A stretch of 42,031 nt of DNA from Escherichia phage vB_EcoS-Ro145clw: sequence record MG852086.2; one strand, given 5' to 3'. Below, one piece after another: positions 5,760 through 40,823 of this stretch. The translations under genes and the position numbers were made by a program. Numbering within the stretch: position 1 is the first letter of the stretch; each line of letters opens with the position of its first letter. The notes under the pieces are model-generated. The model made no database searches. It was not told where the DNA came from and was given only the letters and a program-made list of their open reading frames with translations.

Positions 5760-5779
5760 AAGGCCCCGAAAGGGGCCTT
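5760..5779 (-). terminator. GC hairpin AAGGCCCC GAAA GGGGCCTT, terminator oriented for the minus strand
   Basis: Perfect 8 bp stem; A-run on plus strand just before it gives a U-tract on the minus strand after HNH gene 5781..6275. Confidence 0.5.
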
Positions 5780-6288: not shown

Positions 6289-6311
6289 AAGGCCCCGAAA
6301 GGGGCCTTTTT
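6289..6311 (+). terminator. second copy of the identical hairpin AAGGCCCCGAAAGGGGCCTT followed by T5 (plus-oriented terminator)
   Basis: 20/20 identity with 5760..5779; followed by TTTTT on the plus strand. Confidence 0.5.
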
Positions 6312-6556: not shown

Positions 6557-7027
6557 CTACTCATGGTTTTCATGAAAACCGTATTTACTCTCGGCGGCTT
6601 TACGCGCGGCAACCGCTACATCAAAATCGTCGTAAAGCCCTAAATGCACTTGTTTGTAGTTAACTTTTATAAACGCGCGCCACTTACCCGCGGCTTTGTG
6701 GAAACTTACACCTGTAGCCCCGGATTTATTTATCTTTCTCATAGTTTTATTTTTACTGTCCCCTGTATTGTCGGTGGCGCGTAGATTTTCTATTCTATTG
6801 TCTAGCCTGTTATGGTTTATGTGGTCTATTTGAGTTTTCCTGTCTAAGTCGCATTTATTATAAAGACACCATGCTATGCGGTGGACATACACTGTTTTAC
6901 CACCCATACCGCAGCACAGATAGCCTCTTACACCAACCGTACCAACCTCAGCACCAGTAGATATCCTGGTAACCTGCCCCGTCTCAGGGCAGTATTTAAA
7001 TTGTTTTGAAACATCAAGATACTTCAT
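6557..7027 (-). CDS. HNH homing endonuclease with AP2-type DNA-binding domain (paralog of 5781..6275)
   Basis: 156 aa; HNH core HRIAWCLYN...IDHINHNRLDNRIENL; AP2-like SGATGVSFHKAAGKWRAFI; shares C-terminal GFHENH with the other HNH. Confidence 0.8.
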   Translation of the reverse strand: MKYLDVSKQFKYCPETGQVTRISTGAEVGTVGVRGYLCCGMGGKTVYVHRIAWCLYNKCDLDRKTQIDHINHNRLDNRIENLRATDNTGDSKNKTMRKINKSGATGVSFHKAAGKWRAFIKVNYKQVHLGLYDDFDVAVAARKAAESKYGFHENHE

Positions 7028-8154
7028 CTTAGCATCTCCGGTGAGATTGAAAGCCTACCTACTTCCCCGAACTCTGAACTATAGGTTATGACATTAGCGG
7101 ACCTCTTAGACATCCACCCGCCGCGAGAAGCATATGCATCTTTCGCCGCGAGAGTGCGATGTTGTTCCACTACCATATTCCTACTTTCTACAATCTTTTG
7201 ATGGTGGAGATGCCCGACATGTGCGTAACTGTACTCGCTTTCGCCAAATGCTTTTCTGAACTTAGCTATCATAATGGGTTCGACCACCTCAAACCGGCAT
7301 TTATGCCCGTGTGTAAAGAACAGTGTCGTTTTACCGTGTTGCACCATCTTGTAAACATCCGGCGACGTATCGACGAACACACGCGGCTCATTGTCGTACA
7401 GCGTACTGAACATCTCAGCCAACCAAATCATTCCGCTTTCGTCGTGGTTCCCTTGCACGATAAGCAAGCGAACATTTTTATGCTTAACCAGCGCCATACC
7501 AACAACACGGCGTACCATACGAATCATGTAGCGGACTAGTTTCTGGTAGCGCGTGTCCGCATCAAGAACATGACCGCTCGCTGGCGTAACGGCATCCAGA
7601 CTATCGAAGTGTGCGAAGTCCCCGAGCAGATTAATGACTCCTGTTCCTGCATCTGGCGCTTTCTGGAATGCCGCATCGAACCATCGGGAGAACAGGTCTT
7701 CAGCAATCTTCATATCCCAGTCGTCGCCGCTCTCGTCGGCCCAGGCCAGCATGCCGAGATGGAAATCAGATACCGTGTAAAGATTGAGTAGTTTGTCGTC
7801 ACGTTTGGCTCGAGTCGCTTTAACAGGCGCAACTGGGGTAATCTCTGACTTCATGCCTTCAACCACGGCTTTCATCAACTCAACCTGACGTTCGGCATCG
7901 GTGTCGGTCTTAACCCATTGCAACTTAGTGTTGCCGAACTCGTCTACCAGTGACGACGTTCCTTTAATCTTGTAGCCGTCTGGCACAAGGTGACTAACAT
8001 CACGACCATGACCTACGCCTTTCTTCGCCAGCTTCGCTTTACGGATACGAATAACGCGGTCTGAGATGCCGTATTTACGGGCAATGTCGATATTCTTCAT
8101 CCCGACGTTCAATTCTTCCTGTAACTGTTCGTCGGTTATTTTCTTCTGGGCCAT
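7024..8154 (-). CDS. N-terminal HTH domain fused to calcineurin-like metallophosphoesterase
   Basis: 376 aa; HTH-like IDIARKYGISDRVIRIRKAKL; MPP motifs SDFHLG, GDFAHFD, QGNHDES, THGH, HVGHLHH in canonical order; SD GAGGAAG. Confidence 0.65.
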   Translation of the reverse strand: MAQKKITDEQLQEELNVGMKNIDIARKYGISDRVIRIRKAKLAKKGVGHGRDVSHLVPDGYKIKGTSSLVDEFGNTKLQWVKTDTDAERQVELMKAVVEGMKSEITPVAPVKATRAKRDDKLLNLYTVSDFHLGMLAWADESGDDWDMKIAEDLFSRWFDAAFQKAPDAGTGVINLLGDFAHFDSLDAVTPASGHVLDADTRYQKLVRYMIRMVRRVVGMALVKHKNVRLLIVQGNHDESGMIWLAEMFSTLYDNEPRVFVDTSPDVYKMVQHGKTTLFFTHGHKCRFEVVEPIMIAKFRKAFGESEYSYAHVGHLHHQKIVESRNMVVEQHRTLAAKDAYASRGGWMSKRSANVITYSSEFGEVGRLSISPEMLR

Positions 8155-8384: not shown

Positions 8385-8414
8385 TTTAAACCCCTTCATT
8401 GTTGGTGTAAGTGA

Positions 8415-8443
8415 ATAGTACCCTATTATATTGGGGTGTGCAA
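8415..8443 (-). promoter_or_regulatory. sigma70-like promoter TTGCAC-N17-TACTAT with embedded AATAG-N4-CTATT inverted repeat (site A)
   Basis: Minus strand reads TTGCACACCCCAATATAATAGGGTACTATTCACTT; nearly identical to sites at 29385, 30614 and 40699. Confidence 0.5.
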
Positions 8444-8551
8444 GTAATGTGATAGAATAATTTTGCGCCTAGTGTCGCACACGAAAAGCGGGTGGTTCCC
8501 GTCTGGCGCATTTATCGATAACCTGTAACCTCTTAACCAAAGGATTAAAGA

Positions 8552-12609: not shown

Positions 12610-12971
12610 ACATTAATTCTTATACTGGTCTTCCGTATGATTTTCGCCGCCGTAATTGCTGGCACCATGTGTGTAACGTTCGCGCGGACGCGGGGCTCCC
12701 CACGCCCGAGTTTAACGTCGCTTCGCCAACACAGATTAATGATGCCTTTGAAGAAGGCCATAAAGACACTAAAGGCCTCGTACACGTAGAAACTCCGCAA
12801 AACTTCGATGTCGTTCTGATGGCAACGCGACACAGAAACCGTGTAATCTGGCACGCTGGCGTATATTATGGTGGTATGGTCAGTCATTGCGAGCTAGCTA
12901 GTCGCCAGGTACGGTTAGACCGACTGGAAGACTTGCGCGAAACTTATGCGGAGATAGAATTTTGGCGCTGA
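12606..12971 (+). CDS. small NlpC/P60-like cysteine peptidase-domain tail protein (gpK-like, putative)
   Basis: 121 aa; ATGA overlap; conserved Cys (RRRNCWHHV) and downstream His (VIWHAGVYY, MVSHCE) spaced like NlpC/P60 catalytic residues. Confidence 0.45.
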   Translation: MNINSYTGLPYDFRRRNCWHHVCNVRADAGLPTPEFNVASPTQINDAFEEGHKDTKGLVHVETPQNFDVVLMATRHRNRVIWHAGVYYGGMVSHCELASRQVRLDRLEDLRETYAEIEFWR

Positions 12972-15517
12972 TATTACACTACACCCGTAACGAAGACGGT
13001 ACTTTCGACCGCAAACGGTACAACGTACCGCCGATGGAATACGTCGTTGCTAACATCCCTGACGGGGTGCCGGTACGTATTTACCGGGGCGAGATTGGCG
13101 AGGATACGGAAGTAACGGAAGATTTCGAAGCGCTGAAAGAAGACGACGTATTCCATATTATCGAAGGTGCTGGTGGCGGTGGCGGTTTTCTCGGAAAACT
13201 GCTTGACCCATTGGGTGTGCTTAAGTTTATCACTAAACTGATTTCCCCGTCGCAGAAAACGCCTAAAACTAGTTTAGCTAACCAGCAGGCGGAGTCGCCA
13301 AACAACAACCTGACGGACCGAAACAATAAACCTCGCCCGTATGAGCGGTCGTATGATATTTGCGGCAGGGTACAGACTATCCCTAATGACCTCATGACTA
13401 CCTATAAAATATTCGATGAATCCGGCCGAATTATCGAGTATGGATACTACGACGCCGGTCGAGGTTACCTGGATATCAAAGCAGAAGACATTACTGACGG
13501 CGATACTAAAGTACAGGAGATTACAGGTACATCTGTCGCGGTGTATGCGCCGTTTACATCGCCTAACAATACAAATACTCCTCAGCTTCTGGTGGGGGAA
13601 CCTATCAATCAGAATCTTTATATAACTATCGCTTCTAATGAAGTAGACGGAGCCGTTCTTAAAGCCCGTAACGATATAAGGGTTAACCCTAGCGACACGG
13701 GCCGTGTGAGATATGACTCTGCTACAAAAATTGGATACCTGTATGATGGCACGGGGGATTCTGGCTTCGCGGAAATATTATCTGTTGGCGATACCGCGTC
13801 GTTCAATAACTTTGACGTTCCGGACGTAACAAATACCAACGGCAACTTTCGTGTTCTTTATGTCGATAACTTCGAGCTGCGGGTCGACACCGGCGGCGCG
13901 TCTAACTGGGCTGCTTTAGGTTCAACCACCTATTCACTTTCCCCGAGAAGTGACACGTGGGTGGGCCCTGTGAATACGTATGAAAGAACATTAACCGACT
14001 GGACCACCTTAAACCGCCTGGAAGTTGAACGAGTAGTTGCTAACATTGCCGCCGCGAATGGCATGTACAAGGACAACGGCAGTAAATTGCGCACCGCTGT
14101 AACTGTAGAGCTTCAATATCAGCTACTAGATGAATCCGGGGCACCGTACGGAAGCATTTACTCGAAACAGGCCACTATATCCGGGCGGTCCGCAGATTAC
14201 ACCGGGGTCACCATTTACGCCGACCTGCCCGTGCGGTCGAAAGTCAGGGTACGCGCCCGGCGTGTTACCAACCTGGACCTCGATTTCGAGGGCACCGTGG
14301 TAGACGAGGTTTCCTACATCAACCTTTACGGGCAGGTCCGCGACACTACGCCGCATTACGGCAACCGTACTACTGTACACTCTGCACGTAAGCAGACGCC
14401 GCGGGCCGCAGAGATTAAGCAGCCGCAGCTACGTATGGTCGCGACGGAGATGGTGTACAAATACCTCGGCAACGGCGTATTTGACGCGGTTATGACACCT
14501 AATACCCAAGCCGTTCAGTCGTTAATACGCCTGGCGCGGGACCCAGTAGTAGGAAACCTCAATCTCACCACGGCTAACATGGATAAGTTGTTGGCTACGC
14601 AAGCAGAGATTGAAAATTATTTCGGAAATGCTGAGGCTGGGCAGTTCTGCTACACATTCGATGATTACAAAACGACTATGCAGGACATCATCAGCACAAT
14701 AGCTGATGCTATTTTCTGCACGCCATATCGTAAAGGGCAAGACATATTACTGGATTTCGAGCGCCCTCGTATGGGGCCGGAGATGGTATTCACCCACCGC
14801 AGTAAAACAACGGCATCCGAGAGGTGGACTAGGACATTCAACGACGCTCAGGTATACGATAGTCTTAAGTTCTCCTACATCGACCCAGATACCAACGTAA
14901 AAGAGACTATTAGCATTCCAGCCGAAGGTGGTGTTAATACCGAAACGTATGACTCCAAGGGTATACGTAATTATCGCCAGGCGTACTGGGCGGCGTACCG
15001 CCGCTACCAGAAAAACCTGTTGAAGAAGGTAACGGTATCATTCACGGCGACAGAAGAAGGGATTTTTGCAATGCCTGGGCGTGCGGTAAGTGTGGTAAAA
15101 GGTTCGCGTATGGCTCCACAAGACGGCTATGTAATCGCCGTTAACGGGCTTACGCTTACTCTTTCTCGGCCGGTCGCGTTTACTCCTGGGGATGACCACT
15201 CACTGATTCTTAAGAAGCGAGACGGGGGAGTTCAAAGTGTTGCCGTTGTGCCTGGAAGCCACGACCGTGAAGTGGTTATGCTATCCGCGCCGCAGGAGGC
15301 AATTTACACGGGGAATAGCGCACTAAAAACTGAGTTTTCATTCGGCAACGAAGCAAGGCATAATGCTCAGATGATTCTTGTTTCTACAGTTGACCCCGGA
15401 GATGACAGAACAGTTAAGATTACCGGGATTAACTATGAAGCAGATTTCTATAAATACGACGGCGTCGCGCCTTTCGGTCGCGGTTTCTCCGACGGATTCA
15501 GCAACGGTTTTAGTTAA
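12962..15517 (+). CDS. tail tip / host-specificity protein with gpI-like N-terminal region
   Basis: 851 aa, TTG start with SD GGAGA; N-terminus (VRIYRGEIG...GAGGGGGFLGKLL...) resembles lambda gpI-type assembly domain; large C-terminal body; position before tailspike. Confidence 0.55.
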   Translation: MALILHYTRNEDGTFDRKRYNVPPMEYVVANIPDGVPVRIYRGEIGEDTEVTEDFEALKEDDVFHIIEGAGGGGGFLGKLLDPLGVLKFITKLISPSQKTPKTSLANQQAESPNNNLTDRNNKPRPYERSYDICGRVQTIPNDLMTTYKIFDESGRIIEYGYYDAGRGYLDIKAEDITDGDTKVQEITGTSVAVYAPFTSPNNTNTPQLLVGEPINQNLYITIASNEVDGAVLKARNDIRVNPSDTGRVRYDSATKIGYLYDGTGDSGFAEILSVGDTASFNNFDVPDVTNTNGNFRVLYVDNFELRVDTGGASNWAALGSTTYSLSPRSDTWVGPVNTYERTLTDWTTLNRLEVERVVANIAAANGMYKDNGSKLRTAVTVELQYQLLDESGAPYGSIYSKQATISGRSADYTGVTIYADLPVRSKVRVRARRVTNLDLDFEGTVVDEVSYINLYGQVRDTTPHYGNRTTVHSARKQTPRAAEIKQPQLRMVATEMVYKYLGNGVFDAVMTPNTQAVQSLIRLARDPVVGNLNLTTANMDKLLATQAEIENYFGNAEAGQFCYTFDDYKTTMQDIISTIADAIFCTPYRKGQDILLDFERPRMGPEMVFTHRSKTTASERWTRTFNDAQVYDSLKFSYIDPDTNVKETISIPAEGGVNTETYDSKGIRNYRQAYWAAYRRYQKNLLKKVTVSFTATEEGIFAMPGRAVSVVKGSRMAPQDGYVIAVNGLTLTLSRPVAFTPGDDHSLILKKRDGGVQSVAVVPGSHDREVVMLSAPQEAIYTGNSALKTEFSFGNEARHNAQMILVSTVDPGDDRTVKITGINYEADFYKYDGVAPFGRGFSDGFSNGFS

Positions 15518-19395: not shown

Positions 19396-19651
19396 TTTGC
19401 AAATCACCTCGTTCTTTGGCGAACCTTAACGCCCTTCTGGCGGCCGATGAGTTTGAAGTATATCTGTGGCCGCATGTTTTGCATTCTAACTTCGGCGTTC
19501 CGTTTTTAGTTTCTCCGATAACAATGACATTACGCCACCTGATAAAGCTACTGTCTCTGTGGCCGTCTCTGGTGGAAAATGATGACGCAAGCCAGGCGCC
19601 CTCCCACTCCCGCAAACACTTAACACATCGCAAGCTATGATGTACTGTCAT
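19388..19651 (-). CDS. zinc-ribbon protein (hypothetical)
   Basis: 87 aa; CVKC ... CKTCG pairs; ATGA coupling to upstream gene; several rare AGA/AGG codons lower confidence. Confidence 0.4.
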   Translation of the reverse strand: MTVHHSLRCVKCLREWEGAWLASSFSTRDGHRDSSFIRWRNVIVIGETKNGTPKLECKTCGHRYTSNSSAARRALRFAKERGDLQNE

Positions 19652-19842
19652 TTTGCCACCAGTACCAGTTCTTTACGCCCAAACGCCGTAACATTGCCCG
19701 TCACATCTTCGATAACCAGTTTACCGTTCGACTCGACGAACACAGTATCAACGGCAACAGGCCGGCGTGTCTTAACGTTGAAAATCATGTCGCCAGGTAC
19801 GATGTCGCGTGCCGGTTTGCGGTCATATTCGTATTTATTCAT
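19648..19842 (-). CDS. hypothetical protein (64 aa)
   Basis: ORF in minus-strand operon; no motif. Confidence 0.4.
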   Translation of the reverse strand: MNKYEYDRKPARDIVPGDMIFNVKTRRPVAVDTVFVESNGKLVIEDVTGNVTAFGRKELVLVAK

Positions 19843-20077: not shown

Positions 20078-20362
20078 TTAACTATAATAGTTCACTATTA
20101 GGTCGTCAACCTCTTCTTTTGTTCCTACTACAAAAACATTTGCGCCACGTTTACGAAGCCGTTTGTGCTCCCGCAACTGATGGTCCTCCGGTTCCGTGTT
20201 TTCATCCTTCTTCACCTCTACAAACCATATCACTCCTCCTGGAAGGGCGACTAACAGGTCAGGCGCTCCGTTTCTACCCTCGTACGACAGCTTACGAACG
20301 AGGCCGCCAATAGCCTCGAATCGGTCTTTTGCGTATTTCTGTATTTTGCCTTCCGGGGTCAT
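20078..20362 (-). CDS. VRR-NUC domain nuclease
   Basis: 94 aa from ATG 20362; GAPDLLVALPGGVIWFVEVKK matches the PD-(D/E)XK core of VRR-NUC proteins. Confidence 0.65.
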   Translation of the reverse strand: MTPEGKIQKYAKDRFEAIGGLVRKLSYEGRNGAPDLLVALPGGVIWFVEVKKDENTEPEDHQLREHKRLRKRGANVFVVGTKEEVDDLIVNYYS

Positions 20363-22924: not shown

Positions 22925-22944
22925 CCTTTGTAAAAAGGCCCAAT
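22925..22944 (-). terminator. hairpin AAGGCCC AATAAA GGGCCTT, attenuator/terminator oriented for the minus strand
   Basis: A-run precedes it on the plus strand (U-tract on minus); lies between the SSB-like gene and polymerase gene. Confidence 0.4.
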
Positions 22945-22973
22945 AAAGGGCCTTAATTAAACTGATTCAAGTA

Positions 22974-23656: not shown

Positions 23657-23685
23657 ACTATAATAGCTAACTATTCAGGTGTCAA
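23657..23685 (-). promoter_or_regulatory. strong sigma70-like promoter TTGACA-N17-TATAGT containing AATAG-N4-CTATT (site E)
   Basis: Minus strand reads TTGACACCTGAATAGTTAGCTATTATAGT; about 50 nt upstream of ATG 23603. Confidence 0.5.
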
Positions 23686-25895: not shown

Positions 25896-25926
25896 TTGTT
25901 TCTCTCCTCTCGTTTGGTATGGGCTA

Positions 25927-25956
25927 ACTATAATAGCTGACTATTCATGATGTCAA
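25927..25956 (-). promoter_or_regulatory. sigma70-like promoter TTGACA-N18-TATAGT containing AATAG-N4-CTATT (site F)
   Basis: Minus strand reads TTGACATCATGAATAGTCAGCTATTATAGT; divergent from the XRE gene. Confidence 0.5.
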
Positions 25957-25976
25957 TGGGCTTTTCTAAAATAATT

Positions 25977-25990
25977 AATATGGTACTATT
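25977..25990 (+). promoter_or_regulatory. operator-like AATAT-GGTA-CTATT overlapping a TGgTACTAT extended -10 (site G) upstream of XRE gene
   Basis: One mismatch from the AATAG-N4-CTATT consensus; weak -35; about 30 nt upstream of ATG 26021. Confidence 0.35.
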
Positions 25991-26020: not shown

Positions 26021-26236
26021 ATGCAACCATCTGAACTAGGCATCCGTGTAGAACAGCGCCGTAAAGAACTCGGCATCTCCCAGCGCCGTCTGGCTGTCCT
26101 GACGGGAGTTTCTCAGGGCGCAATTAATCAGCTTGCACTCGGAGTAACTCAGGACGTCCGCCCGGCAACGCTGTTTAAACTGGCGGAAGTGCTGGAAGTA
26201 GACGCCAAGTGGCTGGCGTTAGGTGAAGGGGCTTAA
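26021..26236 (+). CDS. XRE-family (Cro/CI-type) HTH transcriptional regulator
   Basis: 71 aa from ATG 26021 with SD AAGGAG; ELGISQRRLAVLTGVSQGAINQLALG is a textbook HTH_XRE motif. Confidence 0.75.
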   Translation: MQPSELGIRVEQRRKELGISQRRLAVLTGVSQGAINQLALGVTQDVRPATLFKLAEVLEVDAKWLALGEGA

Positions 26237-28552: not shown

Positions 28553-28786
28553 TTATTCCAGGTCTTCTAAAGTAGCGGTCATTCCGCGAACTTCTGCAAC
28601 AGCGCTATATTTCCCGCCAACGTTTTTTACGACACCGGATTTAACCAGCACGCGTAACGACGCTTCAATAATGGCGGAACTATAGTACTTAAAATAACTG
28701 CGGCGCAAGTCAAGAACACTACACGACCCTTTTTTACGTGTAAGCGAAACTACCGCCGTAAATACTCGTGACTGGAACTCTGTCAT
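28553..28786 (-). CDS. hypothetical protein (77 aa) ending in LEDLE
   Basis: ORF coupled to upstream AlpA-like gene; shares the C-terminal DLE tail with primase and exonuclease. Confidence 0.4.
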   Translation of the reverse strand: MTEFQSRVFTAVVSLTRKKGSCSVLDLRRSYFKYYSSAIIEASLRVLVKSGVVKNVGGKYSAVAEVRGMTATLEDLE

Positions 28787-28953
28787 TTCACATTCTCCTT
28801 AATCCACGCTTCCACTTTATCCGGGTCAAACGTACCTGGCTGACGGCGGCCCATAATGCGGATACAGCAATCAGGGAACTTCCCACTCTTTAACCAGTTA
28901 TTCAGCGTTCGACGAGTAACCCCGATACGCTCGGCTACCTCATTCTGCGTCAT
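28783..28953 (-). CDS. AlpA/Xis-like HTH DNA-binding protein
   Basis: 56 aa from ATG 28953 (SD GAGGG); MTQNEVAERIGVTRRTLNNWLKSGKFP...VEAWI fits the AlpA-type HTH pattern. Confidence 0.55.
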   Translation of the reverse strand: MTQNEVAERIGVTRRTLNNWLKSGKFPDCCIRIMGRRQPGTFDPDKVEAWIKENVK

Positions 28954-28985: not shown

Positions 28986-29014
28986 AGTATACATTGCGAA
29001 TAATGGGAAATCAA
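28986..29014 (-). promoter_or_regulatory. sigma70-like promoter TTGATT-N17-TATACT
   Basis: Minus strand reads TTGATTTCCCATTATTCGCAATGTATACT about 30 nt upstream of ATG 28953. Confidence 0.45.
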
Positions 29015-29384: not shown

Positions 29385-29413
29385 TTGCATACCCCAATAT
29401 AATAGGCTACTAT
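29385..29413 (+). promoter_or_regulatory. sigma70-like promoter TTGCAT-N17-TACTAT with AATAG-GCTA-CTATT (site C)
   Basis: TTGCATACCCCAATATAATAGGCTACTATTCACTT; near-identical to site A; about 30 nt upstream of ATG 29448. Confidence 0.5.
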
Positions 29414-29447
29414 TCACTTATCGAAACGAGACAGAGGGGTGAGGGTT

Positions 29448-29947: not shown

Positions 29948-30112
29948 ATGAGAGAAGCATTTGAACGCTGGGCCGTAGTCGAGGGGCTGCCGGTTAACAA
30001 GGGTTCGAAGAAAGAGTACCTGAACGTTAAGACGCGTCTCGCGTGGCGGGCGTGGAAAGCTGGCGTTCGAACTGCGATGAATAAGGAGGTGAAACATGAG
30101 CGAGTGGATTAA
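29948..30112 (+). CDS. small hypothetical protein (54 aa)
   Basis: SD GGGGG 5 nt upstream; overlaps next gene start by 17 nt; below cut-off. Confidence 0.3.
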   Translation: MREAFERWAVVEGLPVNKGSKKEYLNVKTRLAWRAWKAGVRTAMNKEVKHERVD

Positions 30113-30613: not shown

Positions 30614-30642
30614 TTGCACACTTGAATAGAATAGGCTACTAT
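30614..30642 (+). promoter_or_regulatory. sigma70-like promoter TTGCAC-N17-TACTAT with AATAG-GCTA-CTATT (site D)
   Basis: TTGCACACTTGAATAGAATAGGCTACTATTCATTT; leader then GAGAGGAGAGACAGAG before ATG 30673. Confidence 0.5.
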
Positions 30643-30672
30643 TCATTTACACGAACGAGAGGAGAGACAGAG

Positions 30673-32906: not shown

Positions 32907-33372
32907 TGGGCTGCATTTCACCGCCGCGTTCGAGGGGTTCCGCGGGGCCGCCTACCGCGCTACGCCGAACGAGAAGTACCTGACGATAGGCTATGGGCAC
33001 TACGGGCCGGACGTAACACCTGGCAAGACCATCACCCCCGGGCAAGGCCTCCTGCTACTTAATCGTGATATGGCTAAGGCTGCAGCTGCGGTTGATGCTG
33101 CAGCGCACCATTCGCTGACACAGGCACAGTTCGACGCTGTGTGTGACCTGGTCTATAATGCAGGTGCAGGTGTGATTGCAGCTACCACCGGCACGGGTAA
33201 GGCGCTGCGCTCGGGGGATATTGCAACGCTGCGGGCTAAGCTGGCGCTGTTTATCAACCAGAACGGCAAGCCGTTACTCGGCCTGCGGCGCCGTACTGCC
33301 GGACGTCTTGCACTGTTCGACGGTAAACTGTGGCAGGAGGCCGAGGCTATTGGGCGCGCGGTGAAAGGTTGA
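32884..33372 (+). CDS. endolysin, T4-lysozyme-like glycoside hydrolase (GH24)
   Basis: 162 aa from GTG 32884 with SD GGAGGA 7 nt upstream; FEGFRGAAYRATPNEKYLTIGYGH matches the lysozyme catalytic Glu ... TIGxGH motif. Confidence 0.75.
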   Translation: MSRNISDNGLHFTAAFEGFRGAAYRATPNEKYLTIGYGHYGPDVTPGKTITPGQGLLLLNRDMAKAAAAVDAAAHHSLTQAQFDAVCDLVYNAGAGVIAATTGTGKALRSGDIATLRAKLALFINQNGKPLLGLRRRTAGRLALFDGKLWQEAEAIGRAVKG

Positions 33373-33469: not shown

Positions 33470-33491
33470 ATCTATTTTCTGTAATGACTAG

Positions 33492-33520
33492 TTGACTATT
33501 ACCTACGACCCTATTATATT
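33492..33520 (+). promoter_or_regulatory. sigma70-like promoter TTGACT-N17-TATATT
   Basis: TTGACTATTACCTACGACCCTATTATATT upstream of the small-gene string starting at 33554. Confidence 0.45.
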
Positions 33521-33553
33521 TACTTCATCGACAACGAGAACGGAGTAGAGAAG

Positions 33554-33631
33554 ATGAGTAACTTCCATAATGAGCATGTGATGCAGTTCTATCGTCATAA
33601 TCTGAAAACTAAAGGAGTGTTTGGGAAATGA
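33554..33631 (+). CDS. tiny hypothetical ORF (25 aa)
   Basis: SD GGAG upstream; stop overlaps next start (ATGA); very short so weakly supported. Confidence 0.25.
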
Positions 33632-34714: not shown

Positions 34715-34995
34715 TGGCACGTACCGTTGCCGCGAGATTCACTGATATTGAATCTGCGATAGAAGAAGCTGTTTATAATAAATTCTGCAACCCCTCTGCT
34801 ACGCACAACTACGGAGTTATTGTTAAATACGGCAAGTTTGAAATTAGGAGAGTTCGCACCGGTCGCCCGCACGAGTTTTTATGGACAACAGAAAGCCTAG
34901 TCCCGCGGTGCCACATTTACACAAGCGGCGCACATACGATTTTTGTAGACCTTAACAAGAAAGATATTACCGTCACTAAAGGAGAGACAAATTGA
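34714..34995 (+). CDS. hypothetical protein (93 aa)
   Basis: ORF with coupled start; no motif. Confidence 0.4.
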   Translation: MARTVAARFTDIESAIEEAVYNKFCNPSATHNYGVIVKYGKFEIRRVRTGRPHEFLWTTESLVPRCHIYTSGAHTIFVDLNKKDITVTKGETN

Positions 34996-35228
34996 TTACC
35001 AGCATTCCTAAACTGATTGAAGAGTACGGAAGTATGTCGGAGACCTGCCGACAAACCGGTATCTGCGAAATGACGATTGCCAAGTACAGCAAAGACGTGA
35101 ACTGCGAGCGCCACGTAATTTATAACAACCGTCTGATGACGCACGTTAAGACAAGCCCGGTGTTATTCACGCGCCGCGGTATCACTAAAACTGAGCAACG
35201 TATTGCTAAAGAGGAGAGTGGGGGATGA
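34992..35228 (+). CDS. hypothetical protein, possible HTH (78 aa)
   Basis: TTG start with SD AAGGAGAGACA; SMSETCRQTGICEMTIAKYS is HTH-like. Confidence 0.4.
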   Translation: MITSIPKLIEEYGSMSETCRQTGICEMTIAKYSKDVNCERHVIYNNRLMTHVKTSPVLFTRRGITKTEQRIAKEESGG

Positions 35229-40673: not shown

Positions 40674-40698
40674 AAATACCTCCTGTTTAAGTTAACTG

Positions 40699-40727
40699 AA
40701 TAGTACCCTACTATATTGGGGTGTGCA
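40699..40727 (-). promoter_or_regulatory. sigma70-like promoter TTGCAC-N17-TACTAT with AGTAG-GGTA-CTATT (site B)
   Basis: Minus strand reads TTGCACACCCCAATATAGTAGGGTACTATTCAG; near-identical to site A. Confidence 0.5.
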
Positions 40728-40794
40728 AACTATTTGTTTATGTATTCCAGTTATTCCGCTCAATTGTAAATGTTGGAATAAACTATTCGAATAG

Positions 40795-40823
40795 TTGACT
40801 TTTCACTGAAAATGTGCTAAGCT
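40795..40823 (+). promoter_or_regulatory. sigma70-like promoter TTGACT-N17-TAAGCT with TG extended -10, preceded by palindrome CTATTCGAATAG
   Basis: TTGACTTTTCACTGAAAATGTGCTAAGCT; perfect 12 bp palindrome at 40783..40794. Confidence 0.45.

Follow-up and report, generated by a model that had tools for sequence, protein, structure and literature searches.

Introduction

The 434 Cro and repressor proteins bind 14-bp palindromic operators with a variable center (OR1-3, ACAA-N6-TTGT) that lie over core promoter elements. Here we analyze an element of similar design, the inverted repeat AATAG-N4-CTATT, in the genome of Escherichia phage vB_EcoS-Ro145clw (sequence record MG852086.2), whose full 42,031-bp sequence is called the window below. 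As in 434, a regulator gene, here that of a small XRE protein with a helix-turn-helix (HTH) domain, is adjoined by a divergent control region that contains two of the putative operators. Unlike 434, the window phage is virulent and without a CI partner, integrase, or lysogeny module; instead of forming clusters like those of OR and OL, its approximately 10 candidate operators are spread genome-wide over nearly all strong promoters, and the arms are unrelated (AATAG versus ACAA).

Two further systems share part of this design. The P22 c2/Cro operator is ATTTAAG-N4-CTTAAAT, and its TTAAG-N4-CTTAA core has the same 5-N4-5 geometry as the window repeat. The N-terminal domain of c2 is also a fold match to XRE; however, the similarity of XRE at the sequence level is distant (E ~0.006) and P22 is temperate. 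The controller proteins (C-proteins) of restriction-modification (R-M) systems, such as C.AhdI and C.BclI, are small HTH_3 dimers of 70-80 aa that match XRE in fold. C-proteins bind palindromic boxes over their own promoter and achieve timing through graded site affinity. They serve one operon, which they both activate and repress, whereas the window system takes in approximately 10 promoters that, being near-consensus, are unlikely to be activated.

The repeat is already listed as sequence in the literature but mislabeled as phage RNA polymerase (RNAP) promoters. The available part of the fBC-Eco01 paper (PMC9825357) gives a PHIRE consensus, tgAATAGTa-ccTATTat-T, and seven 20-mers, PP1-PP7 (e.g. 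TGAATAGTACCCTATTATAT), labeled 'Phage RNAP promoter'; the sites given there belong to the same sequence family as the window repeat. Seven PHIRE phage promoters are likewise reported, as a count only in the available text, for VB_EcoS-Golestan (PMC7203180). Neither dyad symmetry nor an operator reading is mentioned in the available portions of these two papers, and the searchable literature yielded no account of the dyad symmetry, an operator reading, three registers, or the counterpart in Cornellvirus. The label itself does not hold, with host-type -35/-10 hexamers at every site and no RNAP, integrase, or CI-type repressor among the 71 annotated coding sequences (CDSs) of MH051334, a 99.9% identical record of the genome. 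The system is best filed as an extension of the Cro/operator paradigm; what sets it apart is its genome-wide extent in a phage that is virulent.

Results

An inverted repeat recurs in the core of sigma70-type promoters

AATAG-N4-CTATT occurs exactly six times in the window (at 8414, 20086, 23662, 25932, 29401, and 30630), against 0.03 copies expected from dinucleotide-preserving shuffles and a shuffle maximum of 1. Allowing up to one mismatch gives 10 sites versus 1.02 expected (shuffle maximum 3), the added ones being at 25977, 33487, 40699, and 40790. This bears out the original prediction that the family exceeds chance. All seven of the sites that it listed were recovered as exact or near copies; it had overlooked the exact site at 20086..20099 and the near ones at 33487..33500 and 40790..40803, and its seventh site, placed at 40698..40711, is corrected to 40699..40712 with its cassette at 40700..40728. 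Nine of the 10 sites are intergenic in a genome that is 10.3% non-coding. The tenth (20086) lies within the final codons of the VRR-NUC gene and supplies the promoter of the next gene. Every site lies within a promoter, overlapping the -10, the spacer, or the -35 of a predicted sigma70-type hexamer pair, and no solitary copies were found. With the -10 hexamer set as -12..-7, the sites fall into three registers:

Class A, TTGCA(C/T)-N17-TACTAT, repeat at -19..-6, over the -10: 8414 (-), 29401 (+), 30630 (+), 40699 (-), and the XRE promoter at 25977 (+).
Class B, TTGAC(A/G)-N17/18-TATAGT, repeat at -25..-12, within the spacer: 20086 (-), 23662 (-), and 25932 (-).
Class C, TTGACT-N17-TATATT or TAAGCT, repeat at approximately -40..-27, over the -35: 33487 (+) and 40790 (+).

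The repeat had been assigned to the spacer or -10, which is true of eight of the 10 sites; the two of class C overlap the -35, where TTGACT is made of the central TTGA plus CT from the right arm. The individual sites, each a putative operator, with the predicted promoters and the operons downstream, are:

8414..8427, minus strand, class A operator, exact; promoter 8415..8443 (-), TTGCAC-N17-TACTAT; leftward Imm/phosphoesterase operon; kept in the complete genome of ST20.
20086..20099, minus strand, class B operator, exact; promoter 20081..20109 (-), TTGACG-N17-TATAGT; p67, p64, and helicase genes.
23662..23675, minus strand, class B operator, exact; promoter 23657..23685 (-), TTGACA-N17-TATAGT; operon of the ssDNA-binding protein and DNA polymerase.
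25932..25945, minus strand, class B operator, exact; promoter 25927..25956 (-), TTGACA-N18-TATAGT; leftward recombination/replication operon, divergent from XRE.
25977..25990, plus strand, degenerate operator, AATAT-GGTA-CTATT; XRE's own promoter, -10 TACTAT at 25984..25989.
29401..29414, plus strand, class A operator, exact; promoter 29385..29413 (+), TTGCAT-N17-TACTAT; small early-region open reading frames (ORFs).
30630..30643, plus strand, class A operator, exact; promoter 30614..30642 (+), TTGCAC-N17-TACTAT; small ORFs, then holin and endolysin genes.
33487..33500, plus strand, weakened class C operator, ACTAG-TTGA-CTATT; over the -35 of promoter 33492..33520 (+), TTGACT-N17-TATATT; packaging/structural operon.
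40699..40712, minus strand, class A operator with one mismatch, AGTAG-GGTA-CTATT in the sense of transcription; promoter 40700..40728 (-); 74-aa ORF.
40790..40803, plus strand, weakened class C operator, AATAG-TTGA-CTTTT; over the -35 of promoter 40795..40823 (+), TTGACT-N17-TAAGCT; spanin/capsid operon; kept in ST20.

The cassettes at 8415..8443 (-), 29385..29413 (+), and 30614..30642 (+) had been read correctly as TTGCA(C/T)-N17-TACTAT, and so had the TTGACA-N17/18-TATAGT cassettes at 23657..23685 (-) and 25927..25956 (-). The XRE gene had been described as flanked by two sites, which is wrong: those at 25932 and 25977 are both upstream of XRE in a divergent control region, the exact site on the divergent promoter lying 45 bp upstream of the degenerate site of the XRE promoter. 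At the XRE promoter, the single mismatch in the repeat creates a TG extended -10, and no -35 is recognizable. The element is slightly asymmetric, TAATAG-N4-CTATTCA; class A copies of this form face downstream and class B copies upstream. A fixed sequence found in three registers and both orientations cannot serve as an RNAP contact surface and instead behaves as a separate element placed over the promoters. Bidirectional-promoter symmetry was ruled out by register and spacer length.

The four class A cassettes are near-identical across approximately 35 bp, including the spacer ACCCCAATAT. A block, ACCCCAA(T/C)AT, stands between the -35 and the repeat in 8415..8443, 29385..29413, and 40700..40728, with a partial Jerseyvirus version (AACC-AA-CAT); it may reflect recent duplication or be a second recognition element. 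The 40790 site is abutted by a perfect 16-bp palindrome, AACTATTCGAATAGTT (40781..40796; everted arms CTATT-CG-AATAG), which has one arm in common with it and is also kept in ST20. This palindrome might represent another operator that overlaps the first, or a different mode of binding. Leaders 3' of many repeat promoters (29415..29440, 30644..30670, 25896..25926, and 33521..33560) contain a common stretch, (A)TCGAAACGAGAGGAG / CAAACGAGAGGAGAG, that ends in a Shine-Dalgarno sequence and, in class A alignments, is conserved nearly as well as the promoter hexamers.

The promoter scan returned a sole clear promoter without the repeat:

28986..29014, minus strand, repeat-free promoter-like site, TTGATT-N17-TATACT; AlpA-like/p77/primase-helicase operon.

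The rightward tail operon has a weak extended -10 candidate, TGaTAGAAT (8450..8458), that is clear of the repeat and is likely a repeat-free tail-gene promoter. Upstream of the same operon, GATAGAATAATTTTGCG(C/G)CTAG is kept between Kagunavirus and Cornellvirus (window 8450..8472; 33325..33349 in FSL SP-031), while the neighboring leftward promoter is not; in the window, this kept sequence makes up the TG-extended -10.

The arms are conserved and the center is free

The window was compared with 74 IMG/VR loci around XRE homologues and with whole GenBank genomes, and a phylogenetic footprint was drawn from orthologous promoters of approximately 35 Kagunavirus and 13 Jerseyvirus sequences (~48). 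The arms are almost invariant in this set; variation is unrestricted in the central 4 bp and in the stretch that separates the -35 from the repeat. At the 20086 site, for example, the arms are invariant in 40 of 43 orthologous regions and the center is variable. Among 106 distinct class B sequences scored on a 0-9 information scale, the arms reach 8-9, equal to the -10 hexamer and above the -35, and the center 1-3. Sigma70 makes no base-specific contacts at promoter positions -25..-21. The class B arm AATAG occupies exactly these positions and is as conserved as the -10, which points to another reader of the sequence.

Imperfect sites show constant defects across the same loci. In Kagunavirus, the class C site at 33487 has its one-arm defect, ACTAG...CTATT, in 32 of 35 distinct sequences, and Jerseyvirus class C has the mirror-image defect, AATAG...CTAGT, in all. 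The XRE promoter repeat carries the same single mismatch, AATAT...CTATT, in 35 of 35 Kagunavirus loci; its Jerseyvirus version, ATTAC-TGTA-CTATT, has two mismatches. In Salmonella phage NBSal006, the counterpart of the 29401 site sits inside a perfect 34-bp palindrome, AACCTGTAATAATAG-AGTA-CTATTATTACAGGTT, at ~28645..28678. Altogether, the conserved arms, the free center, the three registers, and the presence of both orientations support the predicted operator set of one dimeric DNA-binding protein over sigma70-type promoters, and we consider it likely from these sequence features that the repeats are operators, that is, separate protein-binding elements on the promoters.

Cornellvirus promoters carry a counterpart palindrome

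In Cornellvirus-like genomes, no exact AATAG-N4-CTATT was found. Exact-match scans had suggested that Cornellviruses are without the operator, a conclusion overturned by a mismatch-tolerant palindrome search: their promoters carry TATTA-N6-TAATA, often extended to TATATTA-N6-TAATATA, as in TTGCAA-tcatatTATTAGTGTCG-TAATAT. The counts of TATTA-N6-TAATA with up to one mismatch are:

FSL SP-031 (L003): 9 sites versus 1.07 expected.
vB_SenTO17 (L004): 6 sites versus 1.08 expected.
L051 (19 kb): 6 sites versus 0.37 expected.
The window (Kagunavirus): 1 site versus ~1.2 expected.
NBSal006 (L002, Jerseyvirus): 2 sites versus ~1.2 expected.

Aligned on the dyad, the half-sites at -8..-3 read tAATAG in Kagunavirus, TAATAG in Jerseyvirus, and TATTAn in Cornellvirus. 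The Cornellvirus palindrome thus has the same span and center as that of the other two genera, with one arm base changed (A to T) and the inner G gone. Kagunavirus phages grow on E. coli, and both Jerseyvirus and Cornellvirus phages on Salmonella. Since the latter two share a host and have different palindromes, the motif tracks phage lineage rather than host, an argument against both a factor of the host and a feature intrinsic to the polymerase.

XRE is a Cro-like candidate binder

The gene downstream of the degenerate site encodes the candidate regulator:

26021..26236, plus strand, XRE, 71 aa; HTH_3 (Pfam PF01381, E=2.3e-12, 47.2 bits versus a cut-off of 23).

A sequence search of the PDB found 434 Cro and 434 repressor to be nearest (36-40% identity), and XRE equals 1zug_A in length (71 residues). 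The AlphaFold2 (AF2) model has five helices (5-17, 21-28, 32-39, 48-57, and 62-66) and a pLDDT of 85. Foldseek template-modeling scores were 0.77/0.83 for 2cro, 0.79/0.85 for 3cro, 0.75-0.80 for P22 c2, and 0.77-0.80 for C-proteins, and the fold matches also include SinR and HipB. These fold relatives (434 Cro, 434 repressor, P22 c2, SinR, HipB, and the R-M controllers) are dimers on palindromes of 14-18 bp. XRE is present in all three genera, with identities of 51% between Kagunavirus and Jerseyvirus, 41-43% between Kagunavirus and Cornellvirus, and 42% between Jerseyvirus and Cornellvirus. Judged by sequence, it is the sole clear-cut DNA-binding regulator predicted in all three, and its divergence appears to parallel the operator split between Kagunavirus plus Jerseyvirus and Cornellvirus.

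More distant XRE homologues (31-39% identity) in five high-GC IMG/VR loci (L067, L068, L074, L075, and L078) lie in immunity-like regions with paired NGTAG-N4-CTACN around the gene, a palindrome with the 5-N4-5 geometry and inner TAG/CTA core of the window repeat. Exact GTAG-N4-CTAC copies are all within ~300 bp of the XRE homologue in four of the five loci; L078 has two more copies ~1.5 kb off. In these five loci the homologue is CI-like and divergent from a Cro-like gene of 66-81 aa. It has a pair of NGTAG-N4-CTACN copies upstream, spaced 24 bp apart, plus a downstream pair in three of the loci, each copy immediately preceded by TTGACG. By its sequence, the arrangement appears to be an undescribed immunity region whose predicted operators share the geometry of the window repeat.

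The original prediction named XRE as the obvious candidate, and XRE remains the favored binder because of its HTH_3, 434 Cro-like fold, its presence in every genome that has the palindrome family, the parallel XRE/operator split, and the operators of its distant homologues. On these grounds we infer, with modest confidence, that XRE binds the repeats.

Other candidate readers of the repeat

Other proteins of the phage were weighed as binders:

19648..19842, minus strand, p64, 64 aa, phrog_4879; all-beta, SH3/Tudor/KOW-like barrel (AF2).
34992..35228, NinH/Fis-like protein, 78 aa; sub-threshold Pfam match (26.2 versus 29.8 bits).
7024..8154, minus strand, phosphoesterase, 376 aa; weak GerE-type HTH match, residues 16-45, E=0.033.
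28783..28953, minus strand, AlpA-like protein, 56 aa; Pfam HTH_17, residues 1-54.

It is rather unlikely that the repeats are operators of p64, the NinH-like protein, or the N-terminal region of the phosphoesterase. The distribution of p64 is that of AATAG-N4-CTATT: every Kagunavirus and Jerseyvirus locus examined has it, at 94-98% identity, and it is absent from Cornellviruses and present in ST20. However, its AF2 barrel has no significant structural match and nothing that points to sequence-specific binding of double-stranded DNA, and it leaves the palindrome family of Cornellviruses, which are without p64, unexplained. The NinH-like protein is common to all three genera, but its Pfam score is below the cut-off and its Kagunavirus form is nearer to that of Cornellvirus (68%) than of Jerseyvirus (60%), the reverse of the motif pattern. 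For the phosphoesterase, the GerE-type match is set against an N-terminus with nothing significant in PDB sequences or NCBIfam. The AlpA-like protein, which the original prediction offered as an alternative, would act as a repressor or as a promoter-loaded antiterminator in the manner of Pseudomonas AlpA and lambda Q. Like those systems, the window has a small phage-type HTH protein and, in class B, sites in the spacer, where the AlpA element also lies (between -35 and -10; PMC7969949). The gene had the best phylogenetic profile initially (86% Kagunavirus/Jerseyvirus identity, absent from Cornellviruses), its operon has the only clear repeat-free promoter, and of the four genes classed as 'early' by RNA-seq of a Kagunavirus (PMC12645636), one has an HTH domain and is probably the AlpA-like gene. 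Against this, the AlpA element is non-palindromic, GGGACG-N5-GGTA (PMC7969949), whereas the window element is a palindrome in three registers, of which A and C do not fit and spacer placement is true of the three class B sites only. The AlpA-like protein is also without the N-terminal segment that AlpA inserts in the RNA exit channel, as described in the available text of PMC9371919. Its gene is gone from L013, L023, and the complete ST20 genome and the sites are kept, by which we consider it ruled out, or at best highly unlikely, as the binder: genes for the AlpA-like protein, p77, and p60 are all missing from the whole of ST20 (best tblastn E=0.08), which retains six exact and three near sites at the same promoters. 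A wider search for AlpA-like homologues gave 13 narrow clusters and no independent lineages for co-occurrence.

Two explanations dispense with a phage-encoded binder. The palindrome might be intrinsic to duplicated promoter cassettes, through polymerase tuning or through inheritance by duplication or gene conversion, which we regard as improbable. The near-identity of the four class A cassettes, spacer included, suggests that they share an origin; in class A the right arm CTATT contributes to the -10 TACTAT, and all sites are promoter-located with none solitary. But no fixed polymerase contact explains arms that stay constant over three registers and both orientations, or the class B arm at -25..-21, conserved like the -10 outside the base-specific contacts of sigma70. 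Jerseyvirus class A promoters keep the arms and not the Kagunavirus spacer, and Jerseyvirus and Cornellvirus have different palindromes on the same host genus. It is very improbable that the repeats are read by a transcription factor which the two hosts, E. coli and Salmonella, have in common. An identical motif in phages of two host genera would fit such a factor; the geometry of the repeat resembles that of the TrpR operator, ACTAG-N4-CTAGT, and one arm of the class C sites reads ACTAG. Nevertheless, Cornellviruses on Salmonella use another palindrome, so that the motif follows the phage lineage, and we know of no E. coli factor with the consensus AATAG-N4-CTATT; OxyR sites, ATAG-N7-CTAT, have other spacing.

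The conservation of p64 was observed on a wider scale as well, with at least 90% identity in 446 of 447 GenBank matches; neighboring genes are typically at 65-85%. This suggests a very constrained target, possibly a host protein. The primase-helicase operon opens with two genes that are exchanged together as a module (window 28553..28953 (-); L023 12559..13144; ST20/L079 6954..7539). One form encodes the AlpA-like HTH_17 protein and a variable winged-helix-looking protein (77-91 aa); the other, in L013, L023, and ST20, encodes a 47-aa CxxC...CxxC zinc-ribbon protein and a 149-aa protein whose C-terminal half is similar.

A model for repression by graded operators

In the proposed mechanism, a phage HTH repressor dimer, most likely XRE, would bind repeats over the core of approximately 10 host-type sigma70 promoters. 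The two arms, (T)AATAG, of 5-6 bp and spaced by roughly one turn of the helix, would be read by one monomer each, and neither monomer would touch the central 4 bp. The bound dimer would cover the -10 in class A, the spacer in class B, or the -35 in class C and so exclude RNAP. We find perfect operators on the promoters of replication/recombination and small-ORF operons and one-arm-defective operators on the structural and XRE promoters. Accumulating XRE would then shut the perfect-operator promoters first, and the structural and XRE promoters last or partly. From the placement and quality of the sites we infer that binding would repress and that timing might be graded. No activator should be needed at these promoters, since they are close to consensus and have spacers of 17-18 bp. 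MerR-type activation from the spacer, which needs a 19-20 bp spacer, was rejected on the same spacers and hexamers.

Several observations weigh against XRE acting in this way. Its own promoter carries the weakest site, and the Jerseyvirus version of that site is barely more than a half-site. The recognition helices differ between Kagunavirus (SQGAINQ) and Jerseyvirus (SQSLITH) despite identical arms, and the Jerseyvirus helix looks closer to that of Cornellvirus (TQSAISH). p64 and the 376-aa phosphoesterase, both Kagunavirus/Jerseyvirus-specific, survive elimination, and all three genera have the NinH-like protein. The Cornellvirus motif is rich in AT and resembles a -10, with only six exact copies seen, and the contrast of Kagunavirus/Jerseyvirus with Cornellvirus is effectively one evolutionary event. 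In Kagunavirus RNA-seq (PMC12645636), most genes, including the probable XRE gene, fall in one 'middle' class; these time classes are too coarse either to support or to exclude graded repression.

Simple covariation of recognition helix and arm was also considered and lends no support to XRE, as differences in the helix residues are not mirrored in the arms. Lambda cI and Cro read one operator with different helices, but the discrepancy is a genuine weak point of the XRE reading.

Binding by XRE and a timing function are separate propositions, and the graded timer is the more doubtful of them. It is possible, as a tentative extension, that, in a strictly virulent phage, one 71-aa Cro-like protein uses graded operators to run the whole transcription program. 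This would amount to an early-to-late timer that works without an activator, sigma factor, or antiterminator and that has co-diverged with its operator in Cornellviruses, a reading that we put forward as speculative.

Genome setting

The window is a complete genome, rotated relative to MH051334 (vB_EcoS-Ro145c2YLVW; Kagunavirus, Guernseyvirinae), position 1 of which is window position 30103. MH051334 has one extra 114-nt (38-codon) tandem copy within the tail-fiber gene (window 13213..13285 versus MH051334 25215..25255), and 31 other mismatches are spread over the whole genome. The tail-fiber region is two CDSs in MH051334 and one 851-aa ORF in the window (12962..15517). The phage is a virulent siphovirus whose large ORFs are those of the tape measure, tail fiber, tailspike, DNA polymerase, and primase-helicase. 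A hairpin, AAGGCCCC-loop-GGGGCCTT, stands at three operon ends (5760..5779, 6289..6308, and 22935..22954) and is probably a bidirectional terminator-like element; members of this hairpin family are also found in Jerseyvirus and Cornellvirus genomes.

Discussion

Kagunavirus and Jerseyvirus, of the Guernseyvirinae, are among the most often isolated phages of E. coli and Salmonella. They are used in therapy, biocontrol, and phage typing, and their use as chassis for synthetic biology has been proposed. A "transcriptional repressor (DicA/Cro/CI)" is a routine annotation in their genomes and leads to recurring questions of hidden lysogeny. If XRE is indeed a Cro-type regulator with genome-wide operators, this annotation problem and that of the phage RNAP promoters would both be settled. 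Conceptually, the system would extend the Cro paradigm rather than introduce a new principle. It would also provide a repressor/operator pair that is compact and orthogonal, and Cornellviruses would offer a second, naturally occurring specificity. For the biology of these phages, it would mean that one protein controls nearly all phage transcription, and it would explain gene timing in a 42-kb virulent siphovirus that relies on host polymerase alone.

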